DNA from: Candidatus Omnitrophota bacterium
GTDB lineage: Bacteria; Omnitrophota; Gorgyraeia; Pluralincolimonadales; Pluralincolimonadaceae
DNA length: 64,000 bases
Direction of reading: 5' to 3'
Assembly (NCBI GenBank): GCA_003141835.1
Contig: PLNR01000005.1
Location: forward strand, 53,108-117,107
A model generated the notes under the pieces. That model made no database searches. It worked only from the letters and a program-made list of their open reading frames with translations, and was not told the DNA's origin. Shown in pieces: positions 24,062 through 62,691 of the stretch; the stretch's first letter is position 1; each line of letters begins with the position of its first letter. Position numbers and translations under genes: made by a program.

Positions 24062-25088
24062 GATTAAGAAGATCCTGATCCTCCGGTTAGACCGCATAGG
24101 GGATATAGTGCTTTCTACGCCGGCAATTAAAGCGGTGAGGGAATATTTTCCGGAAACGCACATCGCGGTAATGGTCAGGGGGGAATATAAGGGCTTACTC
24201 ATAAACGATCCCGCCATAAATGAGGTCATCGGATGCAAGCCCCTTTGGGATTTTAAGTTCATCGGGGAACTGCGGGACAGGAAGTTCGATCTAGCCGTCG
24301 ACCTGGTCATGGACCGGGATTATAAAAGCGCTTTTTTGGCTTATTTAAGCGGGGCCCCTTATCGGGCAGGGTACGATATTGCAGGCAGGGGCATATTTTT
24401 CAATATAAGGGCCGGATATGGCAAAGAGAAGAAACATCTCGTTGAAAATAATTTAGATGTCATAAGAAAGCTGGGGATAGTCCCCGGCGGGGGGAGGCCT
24501 CAACTTCATGTTGCCCCGCAGGATTCGGGATTTATCAGGGATTTTTTATCATCACAGGGCATTGATCAGGGTGAAATTTTAGTCGGCATCCATCCCGGAG
24601 GATATTATCCATCGCAGCGCTGGCCGGCGGAGAGAGTCGCCGCGCTGTCCGATGAAATAATAAAAAGATACACTGCTAAGGTGGTCCTTATCGGAGGGCC
24701 GGAAGAAAGGGATTTTATGGAAAGGGCTGCGGGATCGATGAAGGTAAAAGCTATTGTCGTAAAAGACATCTCTTTGGCGCATTTAACGGCGCTGATCCGG
24801 CGGTGCCAGCTTTTGGTCTGTAATAATTCCGGGCCCTTGCATATCGCCTGCGCATTAGGGGTGCCTACGGTATCGACTATGGGGCCGACTTTACCCTGGC
24901 GGTGGTGGCCTGTCGGGGAGGGCCACATTGTCCTGCGGAAGGACCTGCCTTGCAGCCCTTGCGGGAAAGGTTCTTGCGGGACGCACGAGTGCATGGAATT
25001 GATCACTGTGGATGAAATGCTGGAGGCGGTTGACAAGCAGATGAAACTTTTGGTGAAGAATAAATGTGCGGAATCTACGGCGCGGTAG
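24042..25088 (+). CDS. family 9 glycosyltransferase (heptosyltransferase-like)
   Basis: ILILRLDRIGDIVLSTPAIKAVREYFP N-terminal signature of GT9 (RfaF/RfaC-like) and C-terminal CxxC Cys cluster. Overlaps the upstream gene by 20 nt. Confidence 0.75.
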   Translation: MLTQKNRIKKILILRLDRIGDIVLSTPAIKAVREYFPETHIAVMVRGEYKGLLINDPAINEVIGCKPLWDFKFIGELRDRKFDLAVDLVMDRDYKSAFLAYLSGAPYRAGYDIAGRGIFFNIRAGYGKEKKHLVENNLDVIRKLGIVPGGGRPQLHVAPQDSGFIRDFLSSQGIDQGEILVGIHPGGYYPSQRWPAERVAALSDEIIKRYTAKVVLIGGPEERDFMERAAGSMKVKAIVVKDISLAHLTALIRRCQLLVCNNSGPLHIACALGVPTVSTMGPTLPWRWWPVGEGHIVLRKDLPCSPCGKGSCGTHECMELITVDEMLEAVDKQMKLLVKNKCAESTAR

Positions 25089-33332: not shown

Positions 33333-34370
33333 ATGCCCGAGCTCAGGGAGAACCTCGCCACTAAAAGATGGGTGGCGATCGCCACCGAGCGCGCGAAGAG
33401 GTCCGACGATTTCAATAAAGGCAAAGAATTGCCGGCGCCGCGTCCGGCATATGACGCGAAATGCCCGTTCTGCGAGGGGAACGAGACCCCGGACCAGACC
33501 GAGGAGTTCTCGATCCGTGACCCCGGGACCAGGCCCGGCGAAAAGGGATGGAAGATAAGAGCGATCCCCAATAAGTATCCTGTGCTTGTCCCCGCGCGTA
33601 AAGGCGCTTCAATCGAGGTGAAGAGGCACAAGGCCGGCATATACCTCCATATGGAAGGGATCGGAAAGCATGAAGTTATCGTCGAGAACCCGGCCCACAA
33701 CAAGACTATTGCGACGATGACGCTCGACGAGGTCGCGACCGTAATAAAGGCATACCACGAAAGATACCTTGCGCTCGACCGGGACCCGGCGTATAAGCAG
33801 GTCCTGATATTCCGCAACCAGGGCGCCGGCGCCGGCGCTTCACAGCTGCATCCGCACTCTCAGATAATAGCCACAGCTATCATCGCGCAGCATATGAGGT
33901 ATGCCTTGATAGAAGCGCAAAGATATTTCGACGAACTCGGAAAGTGCGTCTTCTGCGACATGATAAAATATGAGCTTGCGGAGAAAGAGCGGCTGGTGAT
34001 GCAAAATGATAAATTCGTCGCATTCGTCCCTTATGCGGCGCTGCTCCCTTATGAGACCTGGATATTGCCGCTCAAGCACTCGACCTCTTTCGCCAACCTG
34101 CTGCCCGAGGACACAGGGTCGCTCGCCCAGATACTGCGTGACATCCTTGCGAAATTATATTACGGCCTGAACAATCCCGATTACAATTACTGCATAAAGA
34201 GCGTCCCCCATTACTCGGCGTGCGAGCCTTATTACCACTGGCATATACAGATACTCCCGCGCCTTACGACGCCGGCGGGCTTTGAGATCGGTTCGGGTAT
34301 GGCCGTAAATGTCGCGCTCCCTGAGGAGTCGGCTAAATTCCTGCGCGAATTCAAGGTCGGGACGCCGTGA
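33333..34370 (+). CDS. GalT-like (HIT superfamily) hexose-1-phosphate nucleotidyltransferase
   Basis: CPFCEGNE zinc motif and HPHSQ active-site histidine motif of class I galactose-1-phosphate uridylyltransferases. Second CVFCD motif. Confidence 0.7.
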   Translation: MPELRENLATKRWVAIATERAKRSDDFNKGKELPAPRPAYDAKCPFCEGNETPDQTEEFSIRDPGTRPGEKGWKIRAIPNKYPVLVPARKGASIEVKRHKAGIYLHMEGIGKHEVIVENPAHNKTIATMTLDEVATVIKAYHERYLALDRDPAYKQVLIFRNQGAGAGASQLHPHSQIIATAIIAQHMRYALIEAQRYFDELGKCVFCDMIKYELAEKERLVMQNDKFVAFVPYAALLPYETWILPLKHSTSFANLLPEDTGSLAQILRDILAKLYYGLNNPDYNYCIKSVPHYSACEPYYHWHIQILPRLTTPAGFEIGSGMAVNVALPEESAKFLREFKVGTP

Positions 34371-35761
34371 GATCAGCCGCCGCGTTCGCATTATTTTGCC
34401 TGCTTTTCCTTCCTGCGGCCGAAGCCGCCCCCGGCAATACCGTTCCTCCTAAGCTCGAGGGGTGGTACCTGGTCTGGCACGACGAGTTCGACGGTGACAA
34501 GGTTGACCCGGCAAAGTGGAGGGTCGAAGATGCCGCTCTCGTGAAGAACAAGGAACTGGAATATTATTCCCCGGCGAACGTCTACGTTAGGGACGGGAAG
34601 CTTATCATAAAGAGCGAAAAGAAGGAACAGGGCGGGCGTCCGTACACCTCGGGCCTTGTAGAGACGAAAGGCAGGTATTCTTTTGAATACGGCCGGGTCG
34701 AGGTCCGCGCCAAGCTACCCGGCACAAAAGGCTTATGGCCGGCCCATTGGATGATGCCGGCGAAGGGCGGATGGCCGCCGGAGATAGATATAATGGAACT
34801 CGTGGGGAGCAAGCCCGATGCGATACACATGACGAACCACTACGGCGAATTCCCGCGTAATCGTTATGACTCAAAGGTCTTCAACGGCCCGGATTACACG
34901 AAAGATTTCCACGTCTTTGCGCTGGAATGGGATCCTGCGGGACTGCACTGGTATATAGACGGCGTCATGCATTTTTCCGTGTCGAGGAACGTCCCGCACG
35001 AACCATTCTATATAATACTCAATACCGCGGTAGGGGGTACGATGCCCCGTGACCCCGACGAAACGACGGTCTTTCCGCAACACCACGAGGTAGATTATGT
35101 GCGCGTCTACATGAAGGAGATACCCGGCACATACTTTCTCATGACATCTGCAGTAAACGGGAAGATAACGGTCGACCCCAGGCTTCCGAGGTATAACAAG
35201 GGCGATAAGGTAAGGGTGGCCGCCGTCCCCGCGATAGGCTATAAATTCGAAGGTTGGAACGGGGACGCAAACCTTGGCAGCAATAATCCCGGTACAGTAT
35301 TGATGAACAGGCACAAGACGATAACCGCGAATTTCGCACCTGATCCCAACGCGCCGAAACTCATTTCGCGCGGCAAGAAAACGGCTGCGTCGACCTCAGA
35401 GAGCCCCGAATTATCGGCAGGGAACGCCGTCGACGGGGATATGGGCACCCGCTGGTCGTCGGAGTTCTTTGACCCCCAGTGGATATATGTAGACCTCGGC
35501 AAGTCCTGCGCGATAGAGGCGGTCCGCCTCGAATGGGAGAATGCGTCCGCGAGGGCGTTCAAGCTCCAGGTCTCTGATGACGCCAGGAGCTGGAGGACAG
35601 TCTATTCGACCGATAACGGGGCAGGGGGGACCGAGGAGATCACCGGCCTGGACGTTACCGGCAGGTATGTGCGCATGTACGGCTCAGAGCGCAGGTCAAA
35701 GTACGGTTATTCTCTCTGGGAGTTCGAGGTCTTCGGCAAAGAGCCGCCTTCCGTTATGTAG
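34367..35761 (+). CDS. secreted family 16 glycoside hydrolase with C-terminal F5/8 type C (discoidin) domain
   Basis: GTG start and signal peptide. GH16 catalytic motif EIDIMELVG (E-x-D-x-x-E). C-terminal GNAVDGDMGTRWSSE...WIYVDLG discoidin signature. Confidence 0.8.
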   Translation: MRSAAAFALFCLLFLPAAEAAPGNTVPPKLEGWYLVWHDEFDGDKVDPAKWRVEDAALVKNKELEYYSPANVYVRDGKLIIKSEKKEQGGRPYTSGLVETKGRYSFEYGRVEVRAKLPGTKGLWPAHWMMPAKGGWPPEIDIMELVGSKPDAIHMTNHYGEFPRNRYDSKVFNGPDYTKDFHVFALEWDPAGLHWYIDGVMHFSVSRNVPHEPFYIILNTAVGGTMPRDPDETTVFPQHHEVDYVRVYMKEIPGTYFLMTSAVNGKITVDPRLPRYNKGDKVRVAAVPAIGYKFEGWNGDANLGSNNPGTVLMNRHKTITANFAPDPNAPKLISRGKKTAASTSESPELSAGNAVDGDMGTRWSSEFFDPQWIYVDLGKSCAIEAVRLEWENASARAFKLQVSDDARSWRTVYSTDNGAGGTEEITGLDVTGRYVRMYGSERRSKYGYSLWEFEVFGKEPPSVM

Positions 35762-43299: not shown

Positions 43300-43384
43300 G
43301 CGTAACGCCGTTCGTGAGGGAGGAAATTTCCTTGACAAAGGTTTTTCGGTTAAGTATACTTATTACAAAAGAAAGGGGGAAATT

Positions 43385-43723
43385 ATGAAGAGCAGACTGT
43401 TGACGACCGCAATTTTAGTATTGGTAGTGATCGGACTTTTATCGGTAAGCTCGCCTTCATACGCCCAGGGTGCCTTGAATAAGCTAGGCCGCGGAGTCGT
43501 GAATACATTGACCGGCTGGCTCGAGATCCCGAAGGGGATAGTCGATGAGAGCAAGGCCAATAACGTATTCACCGGGCTGACAGTCGGGACGATAAAAGGA
43601 TTAGGCTTAGGCCTGGTCCGTACCGGCGCGGGTATCTATGAAGCCCTGACGTTCCCGTTCCCGATCCCCGAAGGCTATGCGCCAATCGTAAAGCCTGAGT
43701 TTGTTTATTCTAACGAAAAGTAA
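43385..43723 (+). CDS. small exported protein, possibly exosortase-system-associated (TIGR04073-like)
   Basis: Signal peptide. LNKLGRGVVNTLTGWLEIPKG pattern recalled from the about 100-aa putative exosortase-associated family. Assignment is from memory, not verified. Confidence 0.4.
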   Translation: MKSRLLTTAILVLVVIGLLSVSSPSYAQGALNKLGRGVVNTLTGWLEIPKGIVDESKANNVFTGLTVGTIKGLGLGLVRTGAGIYEALTFPFPIPEGYAPIVKPEFVYSNEK

Positions 43724-43742: not shown

Positions 43743-43769
43743 AGAATCTTGCGGGGCCTTGGAAAAGGC
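43743..43769 (+). terminator. rho-independent terminator
   Basis: GGGGCCTT ggaa AAGGCCCC perfect 8-bp stem followed by GTTTTTT. Confidence 0.8.
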
Positions 43770-43928
43770 CCCGTTTTTTAAGGCACAATTCGAAACGTGA
43801 ATAATTAATCTTGACAAGGCCCTGTTTATATGGCAATATTAAAACAACCTACTTAATAACAATACCTTACATACCTGTTTTAAAAAGTCCCCTGCTGCAA
43901 AAATTACATTTGGAGAAGGAGGCCTTGA

Positions 43929-45884
43929 ATGCGTTTTAAAGCATTTCTTCTTATCGGTTCTTTTGTGGTGCTATTGGCGGGCCATGCGGCGCCGGCTTTT
44001 ACGGCAGTCGCCAAGCAGATAGCGCCGCTTTTTGACCCGGGAACCGAAGAAGCGGTTGACTACGCCAAATACGGTGAGTTCAAGGGCATAGGCACCGAGG
44101 CTTACAAGTATGAGATCAAAGACAGGCAGGGCCTTGCCGCAGCCGTAGGCGAGGGCATATATCCAAACACCAGCGTCACCAAAGACCCCGCATACAGGGA
44201 AGCGCAGGCGAGCGGGAAGCTCGTGGGAAAACACTGGGATTTCGTGAATAACGAGGACCAGATGCTCGCCTTTTACAAATGGGCGACGGCAAGCGAAGAA
44301 TCCGGCGTAAAGCTGTATTATACCGCCGCTGCCCTCGCCAGGTCCGGCCACACGCTCCAGGCGATAAAAGCATATTATGCGGTGCTGGTGAATTACCCGA
44401 GGTCGATAGGCTGGACATATTGGCACACCCCGCTTTATAGCTCGAAGATGGCATTAAATGACATCGAATACCTTACCAGGACCCATCCGGAGCTGGGCAT
44501 TAAACTGGTGGGCGCTAAGATAACCGTAGAAAATTCTTTCGACAACGACGTATCCAACGACAAATTCATCATAGACCCGGGAAAACTCGTCAAGGTAAAA
44601 CCCGAAGAAGTCATCCCCCCGAAGATAGATCTCTCAAAACTTAAAGTCATCAAGACCGCAGGCGGCGCGCACGTCAAGCTCGTCGAATACGAGAACGGCC
44701 ACTGGCAGCTTTTGGTCGACGGCAAGCCTTTCCCGATGAAGGCGATGGCGTATTCCCCGAACAAGGTCGGCCTCTCGCCTGATAACGGCTCCCTGAACGT
44801 TCAGACCGACTGGATGACCGCGGATTTTAACAAGAACGGCAAGATCGACGGGCCGTATGACGCCTACGTCGACATGAATAAGAACAACAAGCAGGACCCG
44901 GACGAACCGTTCGTCGGCGATTTCCAATTAATGAAGGATATGGGGGTCAACACTATACGCCTTTATCACCATTCTACCAATAAAGACCTCCTTAAGGACG
45001 GTTACGAGAAGTACGGTTTCATGTACCTCATGGGCGATTTCCTCGGGATGTACGCGGCCGGCTCGGGCGCGGATTGGTATTCGGGCACCGATTACACCGA
45101 CGAAGGGCAAAAGAAGAAGATGATGGATAGCGTCAGGCAGGTCGTCATGGAATATAAGGATGAACCTTATATCCTCATGTGGGTGCTTGGCAACGAGAAC
45201 AATTACGGATATCCCGGCACGCCTGATGTCGAACCGGGAATGGGTTGCCGCGCGAAACTCCAGCCCGACGCCTATTACGCCTTCGTCAACGAAGTCGCTA
45301 AGATGATTAAATCGATCGACCCTAACCATCCGGTCGCCATCTGCAACGGCGAGACGGTATATCTCAATTATTTCGCAAAATATTGCACGGATGTGGACGT
45401 CTTCGGCGCGAATGTCTACCGCGGCCCGAACGGTTTCGGGAGGACGTATTGGGAGGATGTAAAGGACCTGACCGGCAGGCCTTCGATCATAACCGAATAC
45501 GGCTGCCCCTCTTATTTTAAAGATGATCCGGAAAAAGGGGAGACACTGCAGGCGGAATACCATAAAGGCAACTGGGAAGACATCGCCTATAATATGGCCG
45601 GCTCGGGTTTCGGCAATGCCCTCGGCGGCGTCTGTTTCGAATGGGTGGACGAGTGGTGGAAGGCAGGGCCTCCGCCGCAGCTTGATCCGGCGAAGCAGGA
45701 GCCGGAGGGCTGGGATTACAAGACAAAATCAAAGACCCCGGGGAATTTCCGCGGGCCGTTCCCTGACGGATGGCTGCATGAGGAATATTTGGGTGTGACA
45801 AGCCAGGGTAACGGGTCTGACAGCCCGTTCTTAAGGCAGATAAAGAAGGCTTATTACTGGTACAAGGAAAACTGGACAAAATAG
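43929..45884 (+). CDS. secreted multidomain glycoside hydrolase, clan GH-A TIM-barrel (paralog of 47863..49236)
   Basis: Signal peptide and N-terminal about 200-aa helical domain. Core with MKDMGVNTIRLYHH, WVLGNENNYG (acid/base NE) and ITEYGCPSY (nucleophile E). EF-hand-like insert DFNKNGKIDGPYD. Confidence 0.6.
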   Translation: MRFKAFLLIGSFVVLLAGHAAPAFTAVAKQIAPLFDPGTEEAVDYAKYGEFKGIGTEAYKYEIKDRQGLAAAVGEGIYPNTSVTKDPAYREAQASGKLVGKHWDFVNNEDQMLAFYKWATASEESGVKLYYTAAALARSGHTLQAIKAYYAVLVNYPRSIGWTYWHTPLYSSKMALNDIEYLTRTHPELGIKLVGAKITVENSFDNDVSNDKFIIDPGKLVKVKPEEVIPPKIDLSKLKVIKTAGGAHVKLVEYENGHWQLLVDGKPFPMKAMAYSPNKVGLSPDNGSLNVQTDWMTADFNKNGKIDGPYDAYVDMNKNNKQDPDEPFVGDFQLMKDMGVNTIRLYHHSTNKDLLKDGYEKYGFMYLMGDFLGMYAAGSGADWYSGTDYTDEGQKKKMMDSVRQVVMEYKDEPYILMWVLGNENNYGYPGTPDVEPGMGCRAKLQPDAYYAFVNEVAKMIKSIDPNHPVAICNGETVYLNYFAKYCTDVDVFGANVYRGPNGFGRTYWEDVKDLTGRPSIITEYGCPSYFKDDPEKGETLQAEYHKGNWEDIAYNMAGSGFGNALGGVCFEWVDEWWKAGPPPQLDPAKQEPEGWDYKTKSKTPGNFRGPFPDGWLHEEYLGVTSQGNGSDSPFLRQIKKAYYWYKENWTK

Positions 45885-45902
45885 GGAAAGGGGGTCAGGG
45901 AG

Positions 45903-46556
45903 ATGAAGAAGTCAGTGATTCTGTTGGTGGTAATGGCGCTTGCCGTATGCGTCGCGGGTATATCCGTAGCCGCCGATGTGGCTGTAACAACTCCTGCTGC
46001 AACCACAACGACAGGGTTCAAGAGGTTTAATGTCTACACCGACCGCACAGCTCGGGATAACCATTTTATACCTTCCGGTTGGATGGGTGATTACGGTGAC
46101 ATAAAACTTGATACCGGTTGGAAGGATAATCCTCATGGCGGGACAACGTGCATAAAGATCGTTTACACCGGCGAGCAGAAGCAGGGCGCCGGATGGGCAG
46201 GCATCTTCTGGCAGAACCCGGCGAATAACTGGGGAACCAAGCCGGGCGGCTACGACCTTACCGGAGCCAAGAAGCTAGTCTTCTGGGCGAGGGGCGAAAA
46301 AGGCGGAGAGATGCTTTCGAAGACCCAGGTAGGCACCCTGGCCGAGGTTAAGGTCGGCGGCATCACGGGTGAATATGCCGATTCGGATTCCGTCTCGATC
46401 GGGCCTTTGATGCTCACGCCCGAATGGAAGGAATATACGATAGACCTGACCGGCAAGGACCTCACCTACATCTCGGGAGGTTTCTGCTGGGCGGCAAGCG
46501 CTGCGGATAACCCGAGCGGGTTCACGATCTACTTTGATGATATTTATTACGAGTAG
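45903..46556 (+). CDS. secreted putative carbohydrate-binding beta-sandwich protein, tandem paralog 1 of 3
   Basis: Signal peptide. Conserved FKRFNVYTD.....DNH(F/Y)IPSGWMGD...GWK..PHGG.T.IKI.Y..EQKQGAGW.GI(F/Y)WQNPANNWGT.PGG.DLTGAKKL.FWARGE.GGE across the three tandem genes. Confidence 0.55.
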   Translation: MKKSVILLVVMALAVCVAGISVAADVAVTTPAATTTTGFKRFNVYTDRTARDNHFIPSGWMGDYGDIKLDTGWKDNPHGGTTCIKIVYTGEQKQGAGWAGIFWQNPANNWGTKPGGYDLTGAKKLVFWARGEKGGEMLSKTQVGTLAEVKVGGITGEYADSDSVSIGPLMLTPEWKEYTIDLTGKDLTYISGGFCWAASAADNPSGFTIYFDDIYYE

Positions 46557-46631
46557 ACGTTAGCTTTTTCTGATAGTATAATATGGATTTAGTATGAAAG
46601 CGCGGTTCTTGACAAAAGGAGGTCACGTTAG

Positions 46632-47216
46632 ATGAAGAGGTTTGTTGTTTTAGTGATAGCTCTCGGTATGCTCGCGGCGGCGGCGGTATCATACGCCGAG
46701 TTCAAGGGACTGAATGTCTATACCGATAAAACGGCAAAAGACAACCATTACATCCCTTCGGGCTGGATGGGCGATACCGGGGATATCAAGATCGACGCCG
46801 GTTGGAAAGAGAAACCCCACGGCGGGGCAACTTCCATAAAGATCACCTACACGGCCGAGCAGAAGCAGGGCGCGGGCTGGGCGGGTGTATATTGGCAGAA
46901 CCCGGCGAACAACTGGGGCACGCAGCCCGGCGGCATAGATCTTACCGGAGCCAAGAAGCTCGTCTTCTGGGCGAGGGGCGAGAAGGGCGGAGAGAAGTTA
47001 GCGGAATTCAAGATCGGCGGCATTACCGGTGAATACGCTGATTCCGATACCGCCGGCCTGACCGACGTGGTGCTCGCGCCCGAATGGAAGGAATATACGA
47101 TAGACCTGGCCGGAAAAGACCTCAAATCGATCTCCGGAGGTTTCTGCTGGGTCGCTAACGCCGCGTCTAATCCGGGCGGTTTTACGATGTATCTGGACGA
47201 TATACGTTACGAATAG
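46632..47216 (+). CDS. secreted putative carbohydrate-binding protein, tandem paralog 2 of 3
   Basis: Same conserved blocks as 45903..46556. Shorter N-terminal linker. Own RBS GGAGG. Confidence 0.55.
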   Translation: MKRFVVLVIALGMLAAAAVSYAEFKGLNVYTDKTAKDNHYIPSGWMGDTGDIKIDAGWKEKPHGGATSIKITYTAEQKQGAGWAGVYWQNPANNWGTQPGGIDLTGAKKLVFWARGEKGGEKLAEFKIGGITGEYADSDTAGLTDVVLAPEWKEYTIDLAGKDLKSISGGFCWVANAASNPGGFTMYLDDIRYE

Positions 47217-47234
47217 CGAAAGGGGGTTAAGGGA

Positions 47235-47855
47235 ATGAAGAAGTTGGCAATTCTGTTGGTGCTTTTGGCGATGGTAGGCTGCGCCGCGGGCCGTTCATAC
47301 GCGGCTGATACTACCGCGACTTCCGCCGTTAACACGGGGTTCAAGAGATTCAACGTCTATACAGACAGGTCGGTGCGCGATAACCATTACATACCTTCGG
47401 GCTGGATGGGCGATTACGGCGACATAAAGATCGATGCCGGGTGCAAAGATAATCCGCATAGCGGGACGACATCCATCAAGATCGTATACTCGGCCGAGCA
47501 GAAACAGGGCGCGGGCTGGTGCGGCATATTCTGGCAGAACCCTGCGAATAACTGGGGCACTAAGCAGGGCGGATTTGACCTGACAGGCGCCAAGAAACTT
47601 ACATTCTGGGCGCGCGGCGAACGCGGCGGAGAAGTGCTGGCCGAGGTCAAGGTAGGCGGCATCACCGGTGAATACTCGGATTCGGATTCTGCCTCCATAG
47701 GGCCTATAACCCTTACACGCGACTGGAAGGAATACACGATAGACTTGGCCGGGAAGAACCTTTCGTACATCTCAGGCGGTTTCTGCTGGTCGGCAAGCGC
47801 CGCAGATAACCCGAACGGGTTTACTATCTACTTAGATGAAATCTATTACGAGTAA
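47235..47855 (+). CDS. secreted putative carbohydrate-binding protein, tandem paralog 3 of 3
   Basis: Same family. Variant Cys in DAGCKDNPHSGTT and CGIFWQNP. Ends 8 nt before the next gene. Confidence 0.55.
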   Translation: MKKLAILLVLLAMVGCAAGRSYAADTTATSAVNTGFKRFNVYTDRSVRDNHYIPSGWMGDYGDIKIDAGCKDNPHSGTTSIKIVYSAEQKQGAGWCGIFWQNPANNWGTKQGGFDLTGAKKLTFWARGERGGEVLAEVKVGGITGEYSDSDSASIGPITLTRDWKEYTIDLAGKNLSYISGGFCWSASAADNPNGFTIYLDEIYYE

Positions 47856-47862
47856 ATAAAAT

Positions 47863-49236
47863 ATGGACCATCACACGAACCACCATCCCGGGCATCACGA
47901 GACGCATCATGTGGGCCATCACGAGATCCATCATGCGGGCGGCCGGCGCAGGAAGAGACGCTACCTTGTAGTCCTGCTGGCGCTCCTGCTCCTGGGCTTC
48001 TTCGTCGGCGGGTCATTCCTCCTGAACTTCATTTCGCATAAGGCCGCGGTTAAGAAGAATAAGGTCGTCCTGGAGAGGCTGCTGAAAAACGGCCATTACA
48101 GGCTTTTGGTCGGCGGCGAACCGTATCTTATCACGGGTGTATGCTACCAGCCTGTACCTCCGGGGAATGACTATAACTACAATTGGTGGGGAGACCCGGC
48201 GAAGCCGTGGCTGGTCGACGGGCAGCTCATGAAGGATGCAGGGATCAATACGGTCCGTATCTACCAGCCGGGCGAGAACCCGAAAGAGGTCAAGCAGGTG
48301 ATAAGCGACCTTTTCCAGAAGTTCGGCGTGCGCACTATCCTCGGCCACAACCTCGGGATATATGATATCCCGCCGCCTAATTATACCGATGAAGGTTACA
48401 GGCAGCTGCTGAAGGAACAGGTGTTGAGTATAGTCAAGACCTACAAGGATGAACCCGGGATATTGATGTGGGTGCTTGGCAACGAGAACGATTATAGTTT
48501 TGACGACACGATCGCGGCCTGGGGTTCTGCCGAGCTCGATGCGATAGCCGATCCGAAAGAGAGGGCGAACGCCAAGGCGAAGATATATTATTCTTTCGTG
48601 AACGATATCGCCAGGGATCTTAAGAAGATAGACCCGAACCACCCGGTCGCGATGGGGAACGGCGAAGTATTCTATCTTGATATCGCAAAGCCGTTGACGC
48701 CGGATGTGGACATACTCGGGCTTATCTCTTACCGGGGCATAAGTTTCGGCAATACATGGGAACAGGTGGATAAGCGTATCGGAAAACCCGTAGTGTTGAT
48801 CGAATTCGGCTGCGACAGGTTCAACTCCCTCACGAAAAAGGAAGACGAGGACGACCAGGTCAAGTTCCTCATATCCCAGTGGAAGGAGATGCTCCGCAAT
48901 ACCTACGATATGACCGGCAGGGGGACGGTGCTGGGAGGATGCATATTCGAGTGGAACGATGAATGGTGGAAGCATGACCCGGCCAATCCCGCCGGCTGGT
49001 TTGTCCAGGACGAGGCCGCCGGCTGGACGAATGGTTCCTATTATTTCGATATCGAGGCCGAAGGCCATATGAACATGAACGAGGAATGGTACGGCATCGT
49101 GGGGATGAGCCTCGAGAAAGAAGATAACGGCGTCAACAAGAGGATTCCCAAAAAGGCGTATTATGCCCTTAAGGAATTATGGTCGAAGGGCCGCGCGGCA
49201 GTCGGGCCGCCGAGGGTGGGCAAGAAGCCTAACTGA
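47863..49236 (+). CDS. membrane-anchored clan GH-A glycoside hydrolase with His-rich cytoplasmic N-terminus
   Basis: MDHHTNHHPGHHETHHVGHHEIHHAGG then RRRKRR and a TM helix. Catalytic core WVLGNENDYS / VLIEFGCDRF parallels 43929..45884. Confidence 0.6.
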   Translation: MDHHTNHHPGHHETHHVGHHEIHHAGGRRRKRRYLVVLLALLLLGFFVGGSFLLNFISHKAAVKKNKVVLERLLKNGHYRLLVGGEPYLITGVCYQPVPPGNDYNYNWWGDPAKPWLVDGQLMKDAGINTVRIYQPGENPKEVKQVISDLFQKFGVRTILGHNLGIYDIPPPNYTDEGYRQLLKEQVLSIVKTYKDEPGILMWVLGNENDYSFDDTIAAWGSAELDAIADPKERANAKAKIYYSFVNDIARDLKKIDPNHPVAMGNGEVFYLDIAKPLTPDVDILGLISYRGISFGNTWEQVDKRIGKPVVLIEFGCDRFNSLTKKEDEDDQVKFLISQWKEMLRNTYDMTGRGTVLGGCIFEWNDEWWKHDPANPAGWFVQDEAAGWTNGSYYFDIEAEGHMNMNEEWYGIVGMSLEKEDNGVNKRIPKKAYYALKELWSKGRAAVGPPRVGKKPN

Positions 49237-49237
49237 T

Positions 49238-49271
49238 CCCTTAACGGATTTAAGGGACAACTAGTCCCTTA
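49238..49271. terminator. bidirectional terminator: two overlapping hairpins between convergent genes
   Basis: CCCTTAA cggat TTAAGGG (49238-49256) and TAAGGGAC aact GTCCCTTA (49251-49271). Sits at the junction of the + glycosidase and the - HAMP gene. Confidence 0.5.
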
Positions 49272-50430
49272 GGTGGGCGTCCGCGTATTGCGCGATCATC
49301 TCCGCGACTTTGGTGGGCGGGGTGACCGAGAAGTAATGGTCCACGACGCAATGCGCTATCTCGTGGGCGAGGACGTTGGCCGAGAGTTTCTCTTCGCTTG
49401 CGAAGAGCGTGTTTATCTTGAAGACGTAATAAGCTATGAACTTGTTATCCTGGCTGAATATTTCCACGTATATCCTGTTAAGGTCATCCTGCCCCTTGTA
49501 GATCCTGACGTTTAAGTGAAGGTCATTCGGCCTCATATCCAGTATCTCCTGCACCTTTGAAAATATCAGGTCGAATTTGTAGGCGATCTCATCCTTCGCG
49601 TCATTTCCGGCGCGCGCCGGTTTTTCCGTAAGGCCGTAATCTATCTTGTATGTGTCTATCCTGTCGTTTACCGACGAGAGGTCGACGCCGTCCTTGAAGA
49701 AGACGTTGCAATAGGTGCTGTTTACGCTCGTCCAGTCGCTGCCGTCGGAGAACCGGTCGTCGGAAACGACGGCCGCCGACGCAGCCGACGCGGTGAATAG
49801 CAGGATGAACAAAAATACCGGCGATACCTTGAAATAAGAGAGGCTGTTCTTTACCTGCCCGATCTTTTTCTCCATCTCCGCTATCTTCTTGTCTATCTCA
49901 CCTCCGGGTGCTTCCTTCGACCGCAGCAGTGACCTTATCCCTTTGACCTCTTCTTCCAGTTCATTTATTTTGGCTTGTGAAGAGGAGAGCGGGTTTTTTA
50001 TGTTCCGGACCATGGCGTTGATCACGTCGCTTAAACCCTTGAACTCGTCGTGCTGCCTTAAATGCACTTCCATGGTCAAGTTGCCCTTGCCTATCTCAGT
50101 GACGTCTTTTTCCAGGCGATATATAGGACCGTAGATGCGGTGGGATATGAAAAGGAGCACCGCTATGGTCGCGAGGCTCACGAGGACTATCGCTATTACG
50201 CCGCTTGAGGCCAAAACCGGCAGTATATAGTCGGCCGTGCTCTTTACTACAAGCCTCAGGCCCTCGAAACTTGTAGTTACGGTCTTTTTTGTCAGAAGGA
50301 GGGAGATCGAGCTCATTATCAGGCACGCCAATATAAGGAGGAGGCAGAACTTAAGTATGAAACTCGCCTGGAATTTTTTCTTTATGAAATAATTCCTTCT
50401 CCTATTCCTCTGATCCGGGGCGTTTGTCAT
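49261..50430 (-). CDS. membrane protein: TM-TM-HAMP-coiled coil-TM plus extracytoplasmic HExxH (zincin-like) domain
   Basis: HAMP region IYGPIYRLEKDVTEIGKGNLTMEV. A third hydrophobic segment looks like an internal signal/anchor (VSPVFLFILLFTASAASA). C-terminal AHEIAHCVVDHYF HExxH motif. Confidence 0.5.
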   Translation of the reverse strand: MTNAPDQRNRRRNYFIKKKFQASFILKFCLLLILACLIMSSISLLLTKKTVTTSFEGLRLVVKSTADYILPVLASSGVIAIVLVSLATIAVLLFISHRIYGPIYRLEKDVTEIGKGNLTMEVHLRQHDEFKGLSDVINAMVRNIKNPLSSSQAKINELEEEVKGIRSLLRSKEAPGGEIDKKIAEMEKKIGQVKNSLSYFKVSPVFLFILLFTASAASAAVVSDDRFSDGSDWTSVNSTYCNVFFKDGVDLSSVNDRIDTYKIDYGLTEKPARAGNDAKDEIAYKFDLIFSKVQEILDMRPNDLHLNVRIYKGQDDLNRIYVEIFSQDNKFIAYYVFKINTLFASEEKLSANVLAHEIAHCVVDHYFSVTPPTKVAEMIAQYADAHLRD

Positions 50431-50936
50431 TTTAACTCGATCTTATTAAGGGCTTCCCTGTTGATCTCGATCTTCGTATTCTTCTCGAGGCCGGCTATCC
50501 ACGCCTTGATCATCCCGCTCGCCTTTTTGCCGCGGTCTTTTTCCGCCTCGGGGATCAACAAGAGGACCTCGGCGGATTTCTTGCTCAAAAGCGAACGCAG
50601 GAGGCTCTGTTCCCAGAACCGCTCGATCATCTTCATGAATTCAGGTTCCCTGTCCATGCCCTGGCGCCTGGCCTCCATGAGCAAGACTTTCTTCTCTATC
50701 ACGTCGTTTATGAACTGTTCTTTCGGGACTTTGTTGCGGTATTCGGGAGGGTAGAGCGATAATTCCGAGAGGAGATCCTCCTTATATAAGGAATAATCGC
50801 CTATTTTAGCGATAACCTCTTTTTTAGGCCCTTTTTCCCCGCATCCGGCCGCGGAAAACACGGAAACCGCGATAAGGATAAAGGATATGAAATATCTCAC
50901 ATCCGCTATTATAAGGGCTTTACTTCCTTTTTGCAA
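50427..50936 (-). CDS. lipoprotein with SurA-N-like chaperone domain
   Basis: Lipobox AAGC after the signal helix. Pattern KIGDYSLYKEDLLSEL...KKVLLMEARRQG resembles the SurA/PpiD N-terminal domain. Operon with the HAMP gene (4-nt overlap). Confidence 0.4.
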   Translation of the reverse strand: MQKGSKALIIADVRYFISFILIAVSVFSAAGCGEKGPKKEVIAKIGDYSLYKEDLLSELSLYPPEYRNKVPKEQFINDVIEKKVLLMEARRQGMDREPEFMKMIERFWEQSLLRSLLSKKSAEVLLLIPEAEKDRGKKASGMIKAWIAGLEKNTKIEINREALNKIELK

Positions 50937-51751: not shown

Positions 51752-52579
51752 ATGAAGGCAAGATTTCTTTTTTCAGCGACCATTCTGTGTTTGGTTTTTC
51801 TCCCGGTTAGTAACGCATATTCTGCGGACAAGCCGCAGCAGAAACCCGCGGTCCGCATCCCGAAAGCGGAAAAGCCCGTCTTGATAGACGGGAACCTGGA
51901 TGAGTACCCCGCGTACGCCATAAGGATGGATAATGAGTCCTTCGAAAGGCTCCAGTATTTCGAATACGGCGGAAAGAATGACATCAGCGCGGATATATAT
52001 CTCCTATGGGACGATGAAAACCTCTACGTCGCGGCCAGGGTGACCGATGATGTCCCGTTCGATAACAACAAAGAAGGGCCTGACATCTGGGACGGCGACT
52101 CGCTTGAGGTCCTCCTGGGGATGGACGGGAAGGCGGATCCCGCGAGGATCTATTTCGGAAAGGGCGATTACCAGATAGGGTTAAGCCCGGGCAACAACAA
52201 GGATATCAAGCCGGGCGAGTGGGTCTGGCGGCGCGATGATTATAAAGGCGGTATTGAGGTTGCGGCGAAGCCGTGGTCAAAAGGATATACGATCGAAGCC
52301 AAAATACCTTTTAAGGTGTTGGGAGGTTTCACCCCGGCGCTCGGTAAGAAGTTCGATTTCGATATAGCTGTCGATGACAGCGACAAAGGCAAAAGGAAAG
52401 AGCAATTAGCGTGGACCGGGACGAAAGAGTTCTATTCAGACCCGAGCCAGTGGGGGACGGCGGTCCTCGCCGCGCCGCAGGCCGCATTTACGCTCTCTTA
52501 TGCCGGCATCATAGGCATAATTATCGCCGTTACGGCTATCGTGGTCTTTATGACTTTCACCGTCCATAAGCCTAAATAG
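51752..52579 (+). CDS. CBM9-like (DOMON-type) carbohydrate-binding protein with C-terminal TM anchor
   Basis: Signal peptide. DGNLDEYPAYAIRMDNE....IYLLWDDENLYVAARVTDD signature of family 9 CBM. C-terminal hydrophobic helix. Confidence 0.55.
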   Translation: MKARFLFSATILCLVFLPVSNAYSADKPQQKPAVRIPKAEKPVLIDGNLDEYPAYAIRMDNESFERLQYFEYGGKNDISADIYLLWDDENLYVAARVTDDVPFDNNKEGPDIWDGDSLEVLLGMDGKADPARIYFGKGDYQIGLSPGNNKDIKPGEWVWRRDDYKGGIEVAAKPWSKGYTIEAKIPFKVLGGFTPALGKKFDFDIAVDDSDKGKRKEQLAWTGTKEFYSDPSQWGTAVLAAPQAAFTLSYAGIIGIIIAVTAIVVFMTFTVHKPK

Positions 52580-58180: not shown

Positions 58181-58270
58181 ATGACGGCTATTTACTGGAT
58201 CGGCGGTATTGTTTCTCTCGTTATTTTTGTTTATTTGTTGGTCGCTTTATTGAAGCCGGAGATATTCTAA
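58181..58270 (+). CDS. kdpF: KdpF, 29-aa subunit of the Kdp ATPase
   Basis: MTAIYWIGGIVSLVIFVYLLVALLKPEIF matches the KdpF pattern (aromatic/Gly-rich TM ending ALLxPExF). Stop shares a base with the kdpA ATG. Confidence 0.7.
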   Translation: MTAIYWIGGIVSLVIFVYLLVALLKPEIF

Positions 58271-60018
58271 TGAGCTGGAATGACCTGATACAGAGCGTCA
58301 TTTTTCTCGGGGTGCTGCTTTTATTGGTAAAGCCGCTAGGGACATATATGGCGCGTATATACGAAGGCAAGCCGGCCGGAGTCAATGTCTGGCTGGGCCC
58401 GCTCGAGAGAGGGATCTATCGGCTCTCCGGAGCGGATCCCGAGAGGGAGATGTCGTGGAAGACGTATACGGCAGCCGTTATGTTGTTTAACATTATCGGC
58501 TTAATAGTCGTATATGGCCTCCAGCGCCTTCAGGCGCATCTTCCCTTGAACTCGATGTCCATGGCCGCGGTGAGCCCGGATTTGTCTTTTAATACGGCCG
58601 TCAGTTTTGCCACGAACACGAACTGGCAGAGCTACGGCGGCGAGACGACCTTGAGCTATTTTACCCAGATGCTCGGGCTGACGGTGCAGAATTTCGTTTC
58701 TGCCGCGACCGGGATGGCAGTACTTATAGCTTTTATAAGGGGATTTATCCGGAAACAGGCCGAGACGATAGGCAACTTCTGGGTAGACCTGGTCAGGTCG
58801 ACGCTATATATACTGATACCGCTTTCGCTGATACTTGCTTTATTGTTGGTCTCCCAGGGAGTCGTGCAGACATTTAATCCGAGCGCGAAGGTCGCGTTGC
58901 TCCAGCCGACGCAAAATGCGGACGGGAAACCTGTCACGGAACAGGTGCTTGCTCTCGGCCCGGCCGCGTCGCAGATCGCCATCAAGCAGCTGGGTACGAA
59001 CGGCGGAGGGTTCTTTAACGTCAATTCCGCGCATCCTTTCGAAAATCCTACGCCTCTGTCAAACTTTCTCGAGGTCATATCGATACTCGTGATATCCGCC
59101 GCTTTGTGTTACACCTTCGGTTACATGGTCAGGGACAAGCGCCAGGGATGGGCCTTATTGGCAGCGATGCTCATCATCTTTATCCCTTGTCTTTGGATAT
59201 GCGTCCACTTTGAGCAAATAGGCAATCCCGCTTTTGACCGCTTGGGGATCGACCGGAAAGCCGCCGCCTCCCAGCCGGGCGGGAACATGGAAGGCAAAGA
59301 GGCCCGTTTCGGTATAGCAAGTTCCGCTATCTGGGCGACGGCTACTACGGCTGCCTCCAACGGGTCGGTAAATTCGATGCACGACTCTTACATGCCGCTT
59401 GGCGGCCTGGTCCCGATGTGGCTTATGCAATTGGGAGAGGTCATATTCGGCGGCGTAGGGTCAGGCCTTTACGGGATGCTTGCGTTTGTGATCGTCGCCG
59501 TCTTTATCGCCGGGCTCATGATCGGCCGGACTCCTGAATATCTGGGCAAGAAGATAGAGTCTTTTGAGATGAAGATGGCCGCGCTCATACTTTTGATACC
59601 TCACATGTGCGTCCTTATCGGGACCGCGCTCGCCGTGGTCTTGCCCAAGGCGAAGGCGGCCATATTCAATCCCGGCGCCCACGGTTTCAGCGAAGTGCTC
59701 TATGCATTCACTTCCGCGGGGAACAATAACGGCAGCGCGTTCGCCGGCCTGGGCACTAATACGTTTTTTTACAATATAGCTTTAGGGTTGGCGATGTTCT
59801 TTTCCCGGTATTGGCTCATCATACCGACGCTGGCGATCGCAGGTTCGCTTTCCAGGAAGAAGATAGTGCCCGCGACCCAGGGGACTTTGCCCACTCACAC
59901 TCCGCTTTTTATCGTCTTTCTGGTCATGGTCGTCCTGATCGTCGGGGCGCTTACTTTTTTTCCTGCGATGGCCCTTGGCCCGATCGTAGAGCACTTGATG
60001 CTATATGCCGGTCAATAG
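58270..60018 (+). CDS. kdpA: potassium-transporting ATPase subunit A
   Basis: 582 aa polytopic. TNGGGFF, NAD/NNGSAF selectivity-filter-like motifs typical of KdpA. Confidence 0.9.
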   Translation: MSWNDLIQSVIFLGVLLLLVKPLGTYMARIYEGKPAGVNVWLGPLERGIYRLSGADPEREMSWKTYTAAVMLFNIIGLIVVYGLQRLQAHLPLNSMSMAAVSPDLSFNTAVSFATNTNWQSYGGETTLSYFTQMLGLTVQNFVSAATGMAVLIAFIRGFIRKQAETIGNFWVDLVRSTLYILIPLSLILALLLVSQGVVQTFNPSAKVALLQPTQNADGKPVTEQVLALGPAASQIAIKQLGTNGGGFFNVNSAHPFENPTPLSNFLEVISILVISAALCYTFGYMVRDKRQGWALLAAMLIIFIPCLWICVHFEQIGNPAFDRLGIDRKAAASQPGGNMEGKEARFGIASSAIWATATTAASNGSVNSMHDSYMPLGGLVPMWLMQLGEVIFGGVGSGLYGMLAFVIVAVFIAGLMIGRTPEYLGKKIESFEMKMAALILLIPHMCVLIGTALAVVLPKAKAAIFNPGAHGFSEVLYAFTSAGNNNGSAFAGLGTNTFFYNIALGLAMFFSRYWLIIPTLAIAGSLSRKKIVPATQGTLPTHTPLFIVFLVMVVLIVGALTFFPAMALGPIVEHLMLYAGQ

Positions 60019-60027
60019 GAGGTTTAG

Positions 60028-62106
60028 ATGGACAGGTCACATAAAGCAAGATCATTATTTGAGCCGGCTATAGTCGGGCCGGCGGCCATAGATTCGTTCA
60101 GGAAGCTGGACCCGAGGCACCAGATAAAGAATCCGGTGATGTTCGTGGTATTGGTAGTGAGCGTATTGACCACCGGATTATGGTTCCAGGCGTTGATTAG
60201 CCGCGGGGAAGCCCCGGCCAGTTTTATCCTGGCGATAACTTTATGGCTGTGGTTTACCCTGATCTTCGCGAATTTCTCTGAGGCGATGGCTGAAGGACGC
60301 GGAAAAGCGCAAGCAGCCAGCCTTAGGAAAGCCAGGAAGGATACCCCCGCAAAAAAATTGGCAAAGCCAAAATTCGGCTCTAATTACGATATGGTCTCGG
60401 CTACGGCTCTCAGGAAAGGGGATGTCGTCCTTATCGAGGCCGGGGACATGATCCCGATGGACGGGGAAGTCATAGAGGGCGTAGCTTCGGTCGATGAGAG
60501 CGCCATTACCGGAGAGAGTGCGCCTGTCATACGCGAAAGCGGCGGAGACCGCAGCGCGGTTACCGGCGGCACGCGCGTCCTTTCCGACTGGCTTGTCGTG
60601 CGCATCAGCTCAAATCCCGGGGAGACATTCCTTGACCACATGATCGAGATGGTCGAAGGGGCCAAGAGGCAGAAGACCCCCAATGAGATAGCCCTCAGCA
60701 TACTGCTGGCGGTATTTACCATTATTTTTCTTTTGGCGACGATCACACTTTTACCATTTTCTATTTACAGTGTGGTCACATCCGGTCACGGATCGCCAAT
60801 CACGGTGACCGTATTGGCAGCGCTGCTCGTTTGCCTTATTCCTACGACTATAGGCGGTTTATTACCTGCTATCGGGATAGCGGGTATGGACAGGATGATC
60901 CAGGCCAATGTCATCGCCACTTCGGGCCGGGCGGTAGAAGCGGCCGGAGATGTCGACGTCCTGCTCTTGGATAAGACAGGGACCATTACTCTCGGTAACA
61001 GGCAGGCCGTGTCCTTTATCCCGGCTCAAGGCGTTGGCGCTGAAGCGTTGGCTGATGCGGCGCAGATATCCTCTTTATCCGACGAGACGCCTGAGGGAAG
61101 GAGTATCGTCGTTTTGGCCAAAGAGAAATATAATATCAGGGAACGCCAGATACATGAGCTCAACGCGAAATTCATCCCCTTCACGGCGCAGACGCGGATG
61201 AGCGGCGTAGACTTAGGCGACGGCAGGCAGATCCGGAAAGGCGCCGTTGATGCTATCGAGAAGTACATAAAAGAACTCGGAGGGTCATTCCCCGAAGACC
61301 TTAAGGCGAGCATCACATCGATATCCAAAAGCGGAGGCACACCGCTTGTAGTAGCGGAACATAAACATGTGCTCGGCGTCATCCATTTGAAAGATATTGT
61401 CAAAGGCGGCATTAAAGAGCGTTTCGCGGAATTGCGGCGGATGGGCATCAAGACCATAATGATCACGGGAGACAATCCCCTGACCGCGGCAGCTATTTCC
61501 GCCGAAGCCGGCATGGATGATTTCCTTGCTCAGGCTACTCCCGAGACCAAGCTTAAACTCATCCGCGATATGCAGACAGGAGGCAGGCTCGTCGCCATGA
61601 CCGGCGACGGCACTAATGACGCGCCGGCCCTCGCGCAGGCGGACGTCGCTGTTGCCATGAACACCGGGACGCAGGCGGCTAAAGAGGCCGGAAACCTGAT
61701 AGACCTTGATTCCAACCCAACAAAGCTGATCGAGATCGTGGAGATAGGCAAACAGCTTCTAATGACGCGCGGGTCATTGACCACTTTCAGTATCGCCAAT
61801 GACGTCTCGAAATATTTCGCGATAATACCCGCGGCGTTCGTAGGGACTTACCCGGCGCTCGGCGCGCTTAACATAATGCACCTGGCAACACCGGCAAGCG
61901 CTGTCTTGTCCGCGGTCATTTTTAACGCGATCATCATAGTAGCTTTGATCCCGCTTGCTTTGCGCGGCATACCTTATAAACCGATGCCGGCAAGCAAGCT
62001 GTTAAGGGATAACCTTTGGATCTACGGTGCAGGCGGCATCATAACGCCGTTCATTGGCATTAAATTAATAGATATGATCCTGGTCGCTTTACACTTGGTG
62101 AGGTAA
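60028..62106 (+). CDS. kdpB: potassium-transporting P-type ATPase subunit B
   Basis: DKTGTIT phosphorylation motif, [16 protein letters not shown] hinge motif. Confidence 0.95.
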
Positions 62107-62109
62107 AAA

Positions 62110-62691
62110 ATGATAAAAGAACAAGTCAAGCCGGCGATTTTGATATTTATAATATTAACGGTGATCACGGGGATCGTATATCCGCTTTTTGTAACAGGCG
62201 TTTCCAAGGCGCTTTTTCCAAAAAAGGCGGAAGGGAGCCTGATCTATCGGGACGGTAAGGCCGTCGGATCATCGCTTATCGGACAGCCGTTCGATGATCC
62301 GAAGTACCTGTGGGGCCGCATCTCCGCGACATCGCCGGCGCAATATAACGCCTCATCTTCATCGGGTTCTAATATCGGTCCCTCGAATCCCGCCTTGGTC
62401 GACGAGATAAAGGGACGCATCAAAGCGCTGCAGGCGGCCGATCCGGGCAACAAAGCGCCGATCCCGGTAGACCTTGTCACTTCTTCATCGAGCGGATTAG
62501 ACCCGCATATTAGCCTGGCCGCCGCGGATTACCAGGTGCCGCGCATCGCGCGCCTCAGTGGATTACCCGAAGAAACGGTCAGGGGTATCGTAAAACAGCA
62601 TACCTATGGACGGTTCCTGGGATTGATCGGTGAGCCGGTCGTGAACGTGCTGGAAGTGAACCTGGCGCTGGACGGATACAAAAATAAATAG
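62110..62691 (+). CDS. kdpC: potassium-transporting ATPase subunit C
   Basis: 193 aa, single N-terminal TM. SGLDPHIS and YQVPRIAR motifs of KdpC. Confidence 0.85.
   Translation: MIKEQVKPAILIFIILTVITGIVYPLFVTGVSKALFPKKAEGSLIYRDGKAVGSSLIGQPFDDPKYLWGRISATSPAQYNASSSSGSNIGPSNPALVDEIKGRIKALQAADPGNKAPIPVDLVTSSSSGLDPHISLAAADYQVPRIARLSGLPEETVRGIVKQHTYGRFLGLIGEPVVNVLEVNLALDGYKNK

Follow-up and report, generated by a model that had tools for sequence, protein, structure and literature searches.

A well-described system for the use of beta-1,3-glucans is the beta(1,3)-glucan utilisation locus of Bacteroides, which combines GH158 and GH16 enzymes with surface glycan-binding proteins (SGBPs) (BuGH158, PDB 6pal; BtSGBP-B, PDB 7kwb; PMC7157763). 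Enzymes of CAZy family GH158 are endo- or processive beta-1,3-glucanases (PDB 9oro/9p25 and 6pal; PMC13195107). They consist of a (beta/alpha)8 barrel followed by a C-terminal immunoglobulin (Ig)-like domain that shapes the active site, and the catalytic pair of one of them, GH158(Pro), is Glu143/Glu229 (PMC13195107). Here, we describe a functionally similar set of five genes from a stretch of 64,000 nt ("the window") of a Candidatus Omnitrophota bacterium (assembly GCA_003141835.1, contig PLNR01000005.1, positions 53,108 to 117,107). Two glycosidases, termed GH-A and GH-B, flank three small secreted proteins, termed S1, S2 and S3. We consider it probable that these genes represent the cell-envelope half of a beta-glucan utilisation system, with a glucan that is most likely beta-1,3-linked (laminarin or curdlan type). 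The system is typical of Omnitrophota and Elusimicrobia.

All five genes are encoded on the forward strand. GH-A (43929-45884) codes for a protein of 651 aa with a signal peptide, a helical region, a beta domain and a TIM barrel, which is predicted to be a secreted retaining glycosidase of clan GH-A. S1 (45903-46556, 217 aa) has a signal peptide, a Thr/Ala-rich linker and a beta-jelly-roll domain with an 8-residue insert. In S2 (46632-47216, 194 aa), the signal peptide is joined directly to the domain, with neither Cys nor linker, and the protein is predicted to be the soluble form. S3 (47235-47855, 206 aa) has a PROSITE-type lipobox (Cys16) and a Thr/Ala-rich linker and is possibly a lipoprotein. 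GH-B (47863-49236, 457 aa), a paralog of the GH-A barrel, is predicted to start with a His-rich tail in the cytoplasm and to cross the membrane with a single N-terminal helix. The intergenic gaps are 18, 75, 18 and 7 nt. A preliminary description, made from the nucleotide sequence of the window, had already listed the three small genes with their sizes, their spacing (75 and 18 nt) and a ribosome-binding site for each, and all of this holds: a purine-rich Shine-Dalgarno-like stretch precedes S1, S2 and S3, with S1 and S3 having similar leaders. There is no such stretch in the 7-nt gap before GH-B, and translation of GH-B may be coupled to the upstream gene. For all five proteins, the nearest named relatives are from metagenome-assembled genomes of Candidatus Omnitrophota.

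We propose the following division of labour. The glucan would be depolymerised by GH-A, a soluble secreted enzyme, together with GH-B, which would be anchored in the inner membrane so that its barrel faces away from the cytoplasm. S1-S3 would be free-standing, non-catalytic beta-jelly-roll proteins that bind the glycan or its oligosaccharides and retain them at the cell envelope, within reach of the enzymes and the uptake system. S3, and possibly S1, would be attached by a lipid anchor and a flexible linker, while S2 would be soluble. In relatives, the products would enter the cell via a CUT1-type ABC importer, with GH161, GH116 and ROK proteins completing the degradation in the cytoplasm. In a diderm cell, Sec signal peptides and the anchor in the inner membrane would fit a periplasmic or envelope location as well as the extracellular one that had been assumed. 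The analysis establishes the gene structure, the paralogy and selection, the class of fold, the size of the family, the domain fusions and the synteny, and from these we infer the substrate, the binding of sugars, the location of the proteins and the separate roles of S1-S3.

GH-A and GH-B share 34% sequence identity over ~420 residues (E = 7e-62), and both contain the motifs GNEN (acid/base) and TEYG/IEFG (nucleophile). The two proteins can be assigned as paralogous retaining glycosidases of clan GH-A, in agreement with the preliminary description. In GH-A, the predicted acid/base is Glu423 (45195-45197, + strand), which aligns with Glu143 of GH158(Pro), and the predicted nucleophile is Glu523 (45495-45497, + strand), which aligns with Glu229. 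Both are invariant among the homologs. The corresponding residues of GH-B (acid/base E208 and nucleophile E314) align with the same pair and are kept in at least 95% of 57 short paralogs. Both enzymes thus have the retaining catalytic pair of GH158 type (an acid/base Glu in an NE motif plus a nucleophile Glu).

The assignment to a family is more difficult. The Pfam model for the GH2 barrel (PF02836) matches GH-A with 44.6 bits (cut-off 21) and GH-B with 18.8 bits, which is below the cut-off. GH-B also has a match below the cut-off to Pfam GH72. The GH2 architecture is absent, since neither Glyco_hydro_2_N nor Glyco_hydro_2 has a Pfam match in the two proteins, and the NCBIfam beta-galactosidase models score only 14-22 bits at cut-offs of 900-2000. 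When the PDB was searched with phmmer, 9oro (GH158) was matched by GH-A with E = 1.1e-10 and by GH-B with 5.6e-6. The best solved sequence relatives of both enzymes are the beta-1,3-glucanases GH158(Pro) and BuGH158, yet the identity to GH158 is only 20-27%. In the enzyme comparison, GH157 scored 29.7 (20% identity), GH2 and GH5 enzymes ~27 (16-20%), GH158(Pro) 25.9 (27%), BuGH158 24.6 (22%) and the GH72 enzymes Gas2p and Gel4 ~24 (17%). No match to GH157 was obtained at the sequence level in the PDB searches. A profile of the GH-A family hits GH158(Pro) with 5.3e-14 but also a GH2 beta-glucuronidase with 8.7e-12. The enzymes are therefore close to GH158, GH157 and GH2, and are demonstrable members of none of them.

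The domain architecture also sets GH-A apart. The preliminary description had noted an extra N-terminal helical domain in the secreted glycosidase. An AlphaFold model (pLDDT 89.5) locates this region at residues ~66-185, with a beta domain at ~190-275, both before the barrel. The protein begins with a signal-peptide-like segment, and only a few short strands and one helix follow the barrel. GH158 enzymes, including that of the Bacteroides locus, have the opposite order, with the accessory domain after the barrel, and they differ further from GH-A by the predicted calcium-loop insert of the latter. Compared with GH157 (LaGH157, an endo-beta-1,3-glucanase, PDB 9fz9) and GH2 TIM-barrel enzymes, it can be stated that the N-terminal sugar-binding domain and the Ig domain of GH2 are absent here. 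The Asp/Asn-rich insert of GH-A (residues 296-326; 44814-44906, + strand) corresponds to a gap in the GH-A/GH-B alignment, with 28 residues that have no counterpart in GH-B. Where a single EF-hand-like loop had been reported, there are two DxNxN loops, and residues D299, G304, D307, D315, N317, N319 and D323 are invariant in 54 homologs. These loops are putative calcium-binding sites.

GH-B had been described as membrane-anchored, and its N-terminus is consistent with this: a His-rich tail is followed by RRRKRR and one hydrophobic helix, predicted to be the anchor. A single N-terminal hydrophobic helix with a positive stretch is common to the GH-B orthologs. The tail (47863-47960, residues 1-33) is built of HHxxHH repeats, with 12 His in the first 40 residues. 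It is limited to this lineage, with 13-19 His in close relatives and almost none in distant orthologs.

The S proteins had been called beta-sandwich-like and were said to belong to no family that could be named. Both statements are supported. Structure prediction gives a beta-sandwich, the closest folds being carbohydrate-binding modules (CBMs). The predicted structure is a beta-jelly-roll of ~150-180 residues as in CBM4/9, CBM11 and CBM30, and thus the S domain shares the fold class and the size (~170 residues) of the type B jelly-roll CBMs (CBM4, CBM11, CBM30; PDB 4bj0, 1v0a, 2c24, 1gui). Like these, it is appended to glucanases in modular relatives. The differences are that S1-S3 are stand-alone secreted proteins encoded in tandem and that they match neither a Pfam CBM model nor a PDB sequence. 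A Pfam scan of S1-S3 at E values up to 1 returned no CBM model but only noise (New_glue, DUF2749, DUF7338). No meaningful match was obtained when S2 and a profile of 53 S sequences were compared to all PDB chains. The identity to any solved CBM or SGBP is only 10-17%. The closest named model is NCBIfam NF038128 (choice-of-anchor J). It aligns nearly over its full length to S2 (residues 37-192 on profile positions 8-161/162, E = 2e-5), but the scores (S1 17.6, S2 24.7, S3 22.1 bits) are all below the curated cut-off of 30, and the S proteins do not have a C-terminal sorting signal. As judged by sequence comparison, S1-S3 thus belong to no named family of Pfam, NCBIfam or PDB. Taken together, the searches of these three resources gave no clean assignment of any of the five proteins to a known CBM or GH family.

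The S family is large. There are at least 1529 matches in a database clustered at 90%, all "hypothetical" and devoid of Pfam domains. Clustering at 50% identity gives at least 3166 clusters, and GTDB species genomes contain at least 561 matches. The domain is modular, with up to eight copies per protein, and also forms part of proteins of 400-2900 aa. The substrates of GH17 enzymes are beta-1,3-glucans. A GH17 Pfam match was found in 16 of 59 multidomain S proteins (representatives picked by length, and hence a biased sample), covering only the C-terminal third of the model. In one such protein, 250 residues directly upstream of the S repeats match the solved GH17 beta-1,3-glucanosyltransferase 4wtp (E = 8.7e-31). 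GH17 is listed among the laminarinases (PMC13526803). Other partner domains in the 59 proteins are GH2_C-like, GH26, CBM4_9, CBM11, CBM30, beta-helix, cohesin/dockerin and caspase. Some relatives with multiple repeats have faint or summed Pfam CBM30 or CBM_11 scores near the threshold. The fusion to GH17 may be taken as indirect support for carbohydrate binding by the S domain, and S1-S3 are likely to bind sugars. One could argue, alternatively, that the S proteins do not bind glycans and are abundant structural proteins of the envelope, or serve GH-A and GH-B as partner subunits or as regulators, with a common jelly-roll fold. This fold is indeed shared with non-lectins, and the conserved loops are unmodelled. 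The use of the S domain in modular enzymes, which resembles that of CBMs, makes this improbable.

The blocks shared by the three S proteins had been noted as near-identical, with short variable linkers. Their protein identity is 71-78%, with a mean column identity of 81%, and the alignment places the divergence in the leader, in the 8-residue insert of S1, in the strand at S2 positions 141-147 and at scattered surface positions. In S1 and S3, the signal peptide contains a Cys and leads into a Thr/Ala-rich linker of 15-20 residues, and in S2, cleavage is directly at the domain. Only S3 conforms to the PROSITE lipobox rule; S1 has no strict lipobox (Val at -1). The best-conserved blocks (S2 numbering) are SGWMGD (43-48), WQNPANNWG (88-96) and GGITGEYxDSD (129-139). 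They correspond to loops, which are the worst-modelled parts of the structure prediction.

The preliminary description also spoke of amplified binding modules. There are indeed three copies, but they do not represent a recent gain. DNA identity over the mature domain is 72-80%, with dS of 1.1-1.5 and dN/dS of 0.08-0.12, which identifies S1-S3 as functional, old and selected genes, rather than a chance similarity or a recent repeat. A neighbour-joining tree was computed for the window copies together with four copies each from two sister genomes (L002 and L003). Each window copy groups with its own orthologs from these genomes (for S1, orthologs from both L002 and L003; for S3, L003_d), and a fourth lineage in the tree is missing from the window. 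A tandem amplification or conversion of recent date in the window is rejected in view of dS values above 1 and of a separate ortholog for each copy in the sister genomes. The three copies are ancient paralogs, and a single copy is the most common state elsewhere: among 76 related loci, one S copy is found in 41, two in 22, three in 7, four in 5 and five in 1. A different case was seen in a relative (L008, 9928-11364), where two S genes are 100% identical at the nucleotide level over 171 codons. Their leaders differ, one gene having a lipobox and a long linker and the other having no lipobox. This pair is either a very recent duplication, a conversion or an assembly artefact.

That the genes form a dedicated glycan-processing set, as had been suggested, is borne out by conserved synteny across many loci. 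The 76 loci are from different species genomes, with labels Omnitrophota, "uncultured Planctomycetia", Elusimicrobia/Endomicrobium, Caldiserica and Clostridia, and many of the contigs are incomplete. A barrel of GH-A/B type is found near S in 62 of them, a full-length GH-A in 43, and two or more barrels in 40. Of the 64 loci with both an S and a barrel gene, 56 have the two at most 300 nt apart. The two sister genomes have the order TIGR04073, GH-A, four S genes and GH-B. Next come the HAMP-like and the SurA-like gene, which are encoded on the opposite strand, and an M48 protease on the same strand as the module. Elusimicrobia-type loci have the order GH, OmpA-like protein, several S genes and further barrels, and gut genomes of Endomicrobium and Elusimicrobium likewise carry the module.

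When all open reading frames of 81 loci were clustered and the frequent families annotated with Pfam and PDB, a recurrent same-strand operon became apparent. It begins with a substrate-binding protein, two permeases, GH-A, one or two S genes, GH-B, a PilZ-domain membrane protein and GH116. GH116 is followed by a ~913-aa protein resembling outer-membrane barrels, and the next position is taken by either a ROK protein or one of 1066 aa. The substrate-binding protein and the two permeases represent an ABC importer of CUT1 type. The 1066-aa protein is a GH161 phosphorylase (PDB 9qqk, E = 7.6e-237), and GH161 enzymes are beta-1,3-glucan phosphorylases (PMC6484121). At least one uptake or catabolic marker is present in 48 of the 81 loci. 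Genes for the ABC importer, GH116, ROK, GH161, PilZ and the ~913-aa barrel are absent from the 64-kb window. The PilZ protein (~647 aa, e.g. L028, 2153-4093) follows GH-B in 27 loci and consists of an N-terminal PilZ domain, a membrane helix, a coiled coil and a C-terminal domain without assignment; it has no sequence match in PDB. The ~913-aa protein (e.g. L021, 9138-11876) is found in 19 loci.

The preliminary description had left it at a degrading or a remodelling array. The context of ABC importer, GH116, ROK and GH161 in relatives favours degradation for uptake and points to a beta-1,3-linked glucan. By analogy to the transglycosylases of GH72 and GH17 and to BcsZ and PslG, the module might instead remodel a self-made glycan: GH-A and GH-B would act in the periplasm, by trimming or transglycosylation, on a glucan of the envelope or of an exopolysaccharide, with the S proteins holding or scaffolding the polymer. 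This would fit the resemblance to GH72 and GH17 transferases, the very high conservation and the PilZ neighbour in relatives as well as, in the window, neighbours of envelope type and a Wzx/Wzy cluster upstream of the module. However, the same-strand operon partners in relatives are uptake and catabolic genes, and in no locus examined is there a glucan synthase beside the module. Synteny with TIGR04073 and with the HAMP-like and SurA-like genes does not extend beyond close relatives (6 to 11 loci), and a terminator separates TIGR04073. We therefore regard remodelling as unlikely.

A further alternative is an attack on the surface glycans of other cells, in which the enzymes and adhesin-like S proteins would serve for attachment to, and digestion of, a host or prey. 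Omnitrophota are suspected to be epibionts or predators, and preprints report that "GH2 catalytic-domain" genes recur beside giant surface proteins and secretion genes in Omnitrophota, which was read as cell-wall attack (10.64898/2026.06.07.730766). Moreover, some S domains are part of very large proteins with multiple repeats, and some are combined with cohesin/dockerin, caspase and beta-helix domains. The "GH2" genes of the preprints may, however, be unrelated to GH-A and GH-B, and in the window, the genes next to the module include none for secretion or pili and no giant gene. The occurrence in gut Endomicrobium and Elusimicrobium, and the context of importer and phosphorylase, fit plain nutrition. 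We thus give this explanation little credence. Laminarin-induced "GH2" genes have been reported in a PVC isolate (PMC13526803); they may be unrelated to GH-A and are not used as evidence here.

The system differs in its parts from that of Bacteroides. Neither a SusC-like TonB-dependent transporter nor a SusD-like protein is found among the Pfam-annotated genes of the window or the frequent neighbour families of the 81 loci; the relatives have an ABC importer instead, along with a large outer-membrane protein of another kind. The S family is unrelated to the binding proteins of the Bacteroides locus. Sus-type clusters have been reported to be absent from Omnitrophota (preprint 10.64898/2026.06.07.730766). 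It is tempting to speculate that S is a new CBM family specific for beta-1,3-glucan and mainly free-standing, which together with GH-A and GH-B (as a new family of clan GH-A), the PilZ protein and the ~913-aa barrel forms an undescribed capture-and-import system, a counterpart of Sus in diderm phyla without Sus, with paralogs specialised by anchoring and fine ligand preference. We put this forward as a tentative proposal, less probable than the reading as a beta-glucan utilisation system. What is new is a conserved non-Sus glycan module with an uncatalogued CBM-like family and a pair of clan GH-A enzymes outside demonstrable family membership. This is not mechanistically surprising.

The phyla Omnitrophota and Elusimicrobia occur widely. 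Hardly any of their members have been cultivated or studied by experiment, and their diet is largely guesswork. The module is among their best-conserved carbohydrate-related gene sets and provides a concrete, testable handle on their carbohydrate use. Public annotation lists the enzymes only as "GH2 TIM barrel" or "beta-galactosidase/glucuronidase" and the S proteins as "hypothetical". If laminarin-type glucans are the substrate, both phyla would share in the turnover of one of the most abundant glycans in the sea and in soil, and carbon-cycle inferences from "GH2" counts would need correction. The S domain is a sizeable candidate for a new family in CAZy and Pfam. Its natural variants (soluble, lipid-anchored, tandem and enzyme-fused) would be useful for studying how free-standing modules and enzymes cooperate.

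With respect to expression signals, consensus scans for promoters and terminators returned no more sites in this region than in shuffled sequence and provide hints only. A promoter-like site (TTGACA-18-AATATT, 43811-43840, + strand, 10/12 matches) is located before GH-A and just past a strong terminator (hairpin then T-run, 43751-43774); it is suggested as the likely start of the five-gene unit. A second site (TAGACG-17-TATAAT, 46554-46582, + strand, 10/12 matches) lies in the 75-nt gap between S1 and S2.

The terminator closes the upstream gene (43385-43723, + strand), which codes for a secreted TIGR04073 exosortase-system-associated protein of 112 aa (NCBIfam E = 9.6e-26, 89.7 bits, cut-off 50). 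This gene has its own promoter-like site (43332-43360) and represents a separate transcription unit. By tblastn, it was found in only 6 of the 76 related loci, all from close relatives. A functional operon link to the module is rejected because of the intervening terminator and this narrow synteny. A literature search on the TIGR04073 family remained without result, and one on the proteomics of Velamenicoccus yielded nothing on the proteins described here. Downstream, a 389-aa HAMP-like membrane protein and a 169-aa SurA-N-like protein (49261-50936, - strand) converge on the end of GH-B. This pair is syntenic in 11 of the 81 loci, again only in close relatives. In the 389-aa protein, a HAMP-like segment is accompanied by a C-terminal domain without assignment.

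A few other genes in the window deserve mention. A secreted GH16 protein (34367-35761, + strand), encoded 8 kb upstream of the module, is laminarinase/licheninase-like, also matches SKN1/KRE6 and has an InlB B-repeat and an F5/8 type C domain; it is thus a further enzyme of beta-glucan type. A 275-aa protein (51752-52579, + strand) combines a CBM9-like domain (E = 6e-27) with a signal peptide and a membrane helix at the C-terminus. Its sequence shares 30% identity with a segment of a larger CBM11/CBM9 protein (1038 aa), whose gene lies just upstream of GH-A in the sister genome L002. There are no tRNA genes in the window. The Wzx/Wzy-type polysaccharide synthesis cluster extends over ~29 kb (140-29141, + strand) and codes for a Wzy-like protein, a flippase, many glycosyltransferases (GT2/GT4/GT9) and methyltransferases. 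Further genes of the cluster code for several radical SAM/SPASM proteins of the B12-binding type and for asparagine-synthase-like fusions, one of which is an AsnB-GT9 protein of 989 aa (25064-28033). Finally, a c-di-AMP riboswitch (RF00379, 57842-57999, + strand, 79.8 bits) is located directly upstream of kdpA, kdpB and kdpC (58270-62691), an arrangement that is of a known type and unrelated to the glycosidase/S module.

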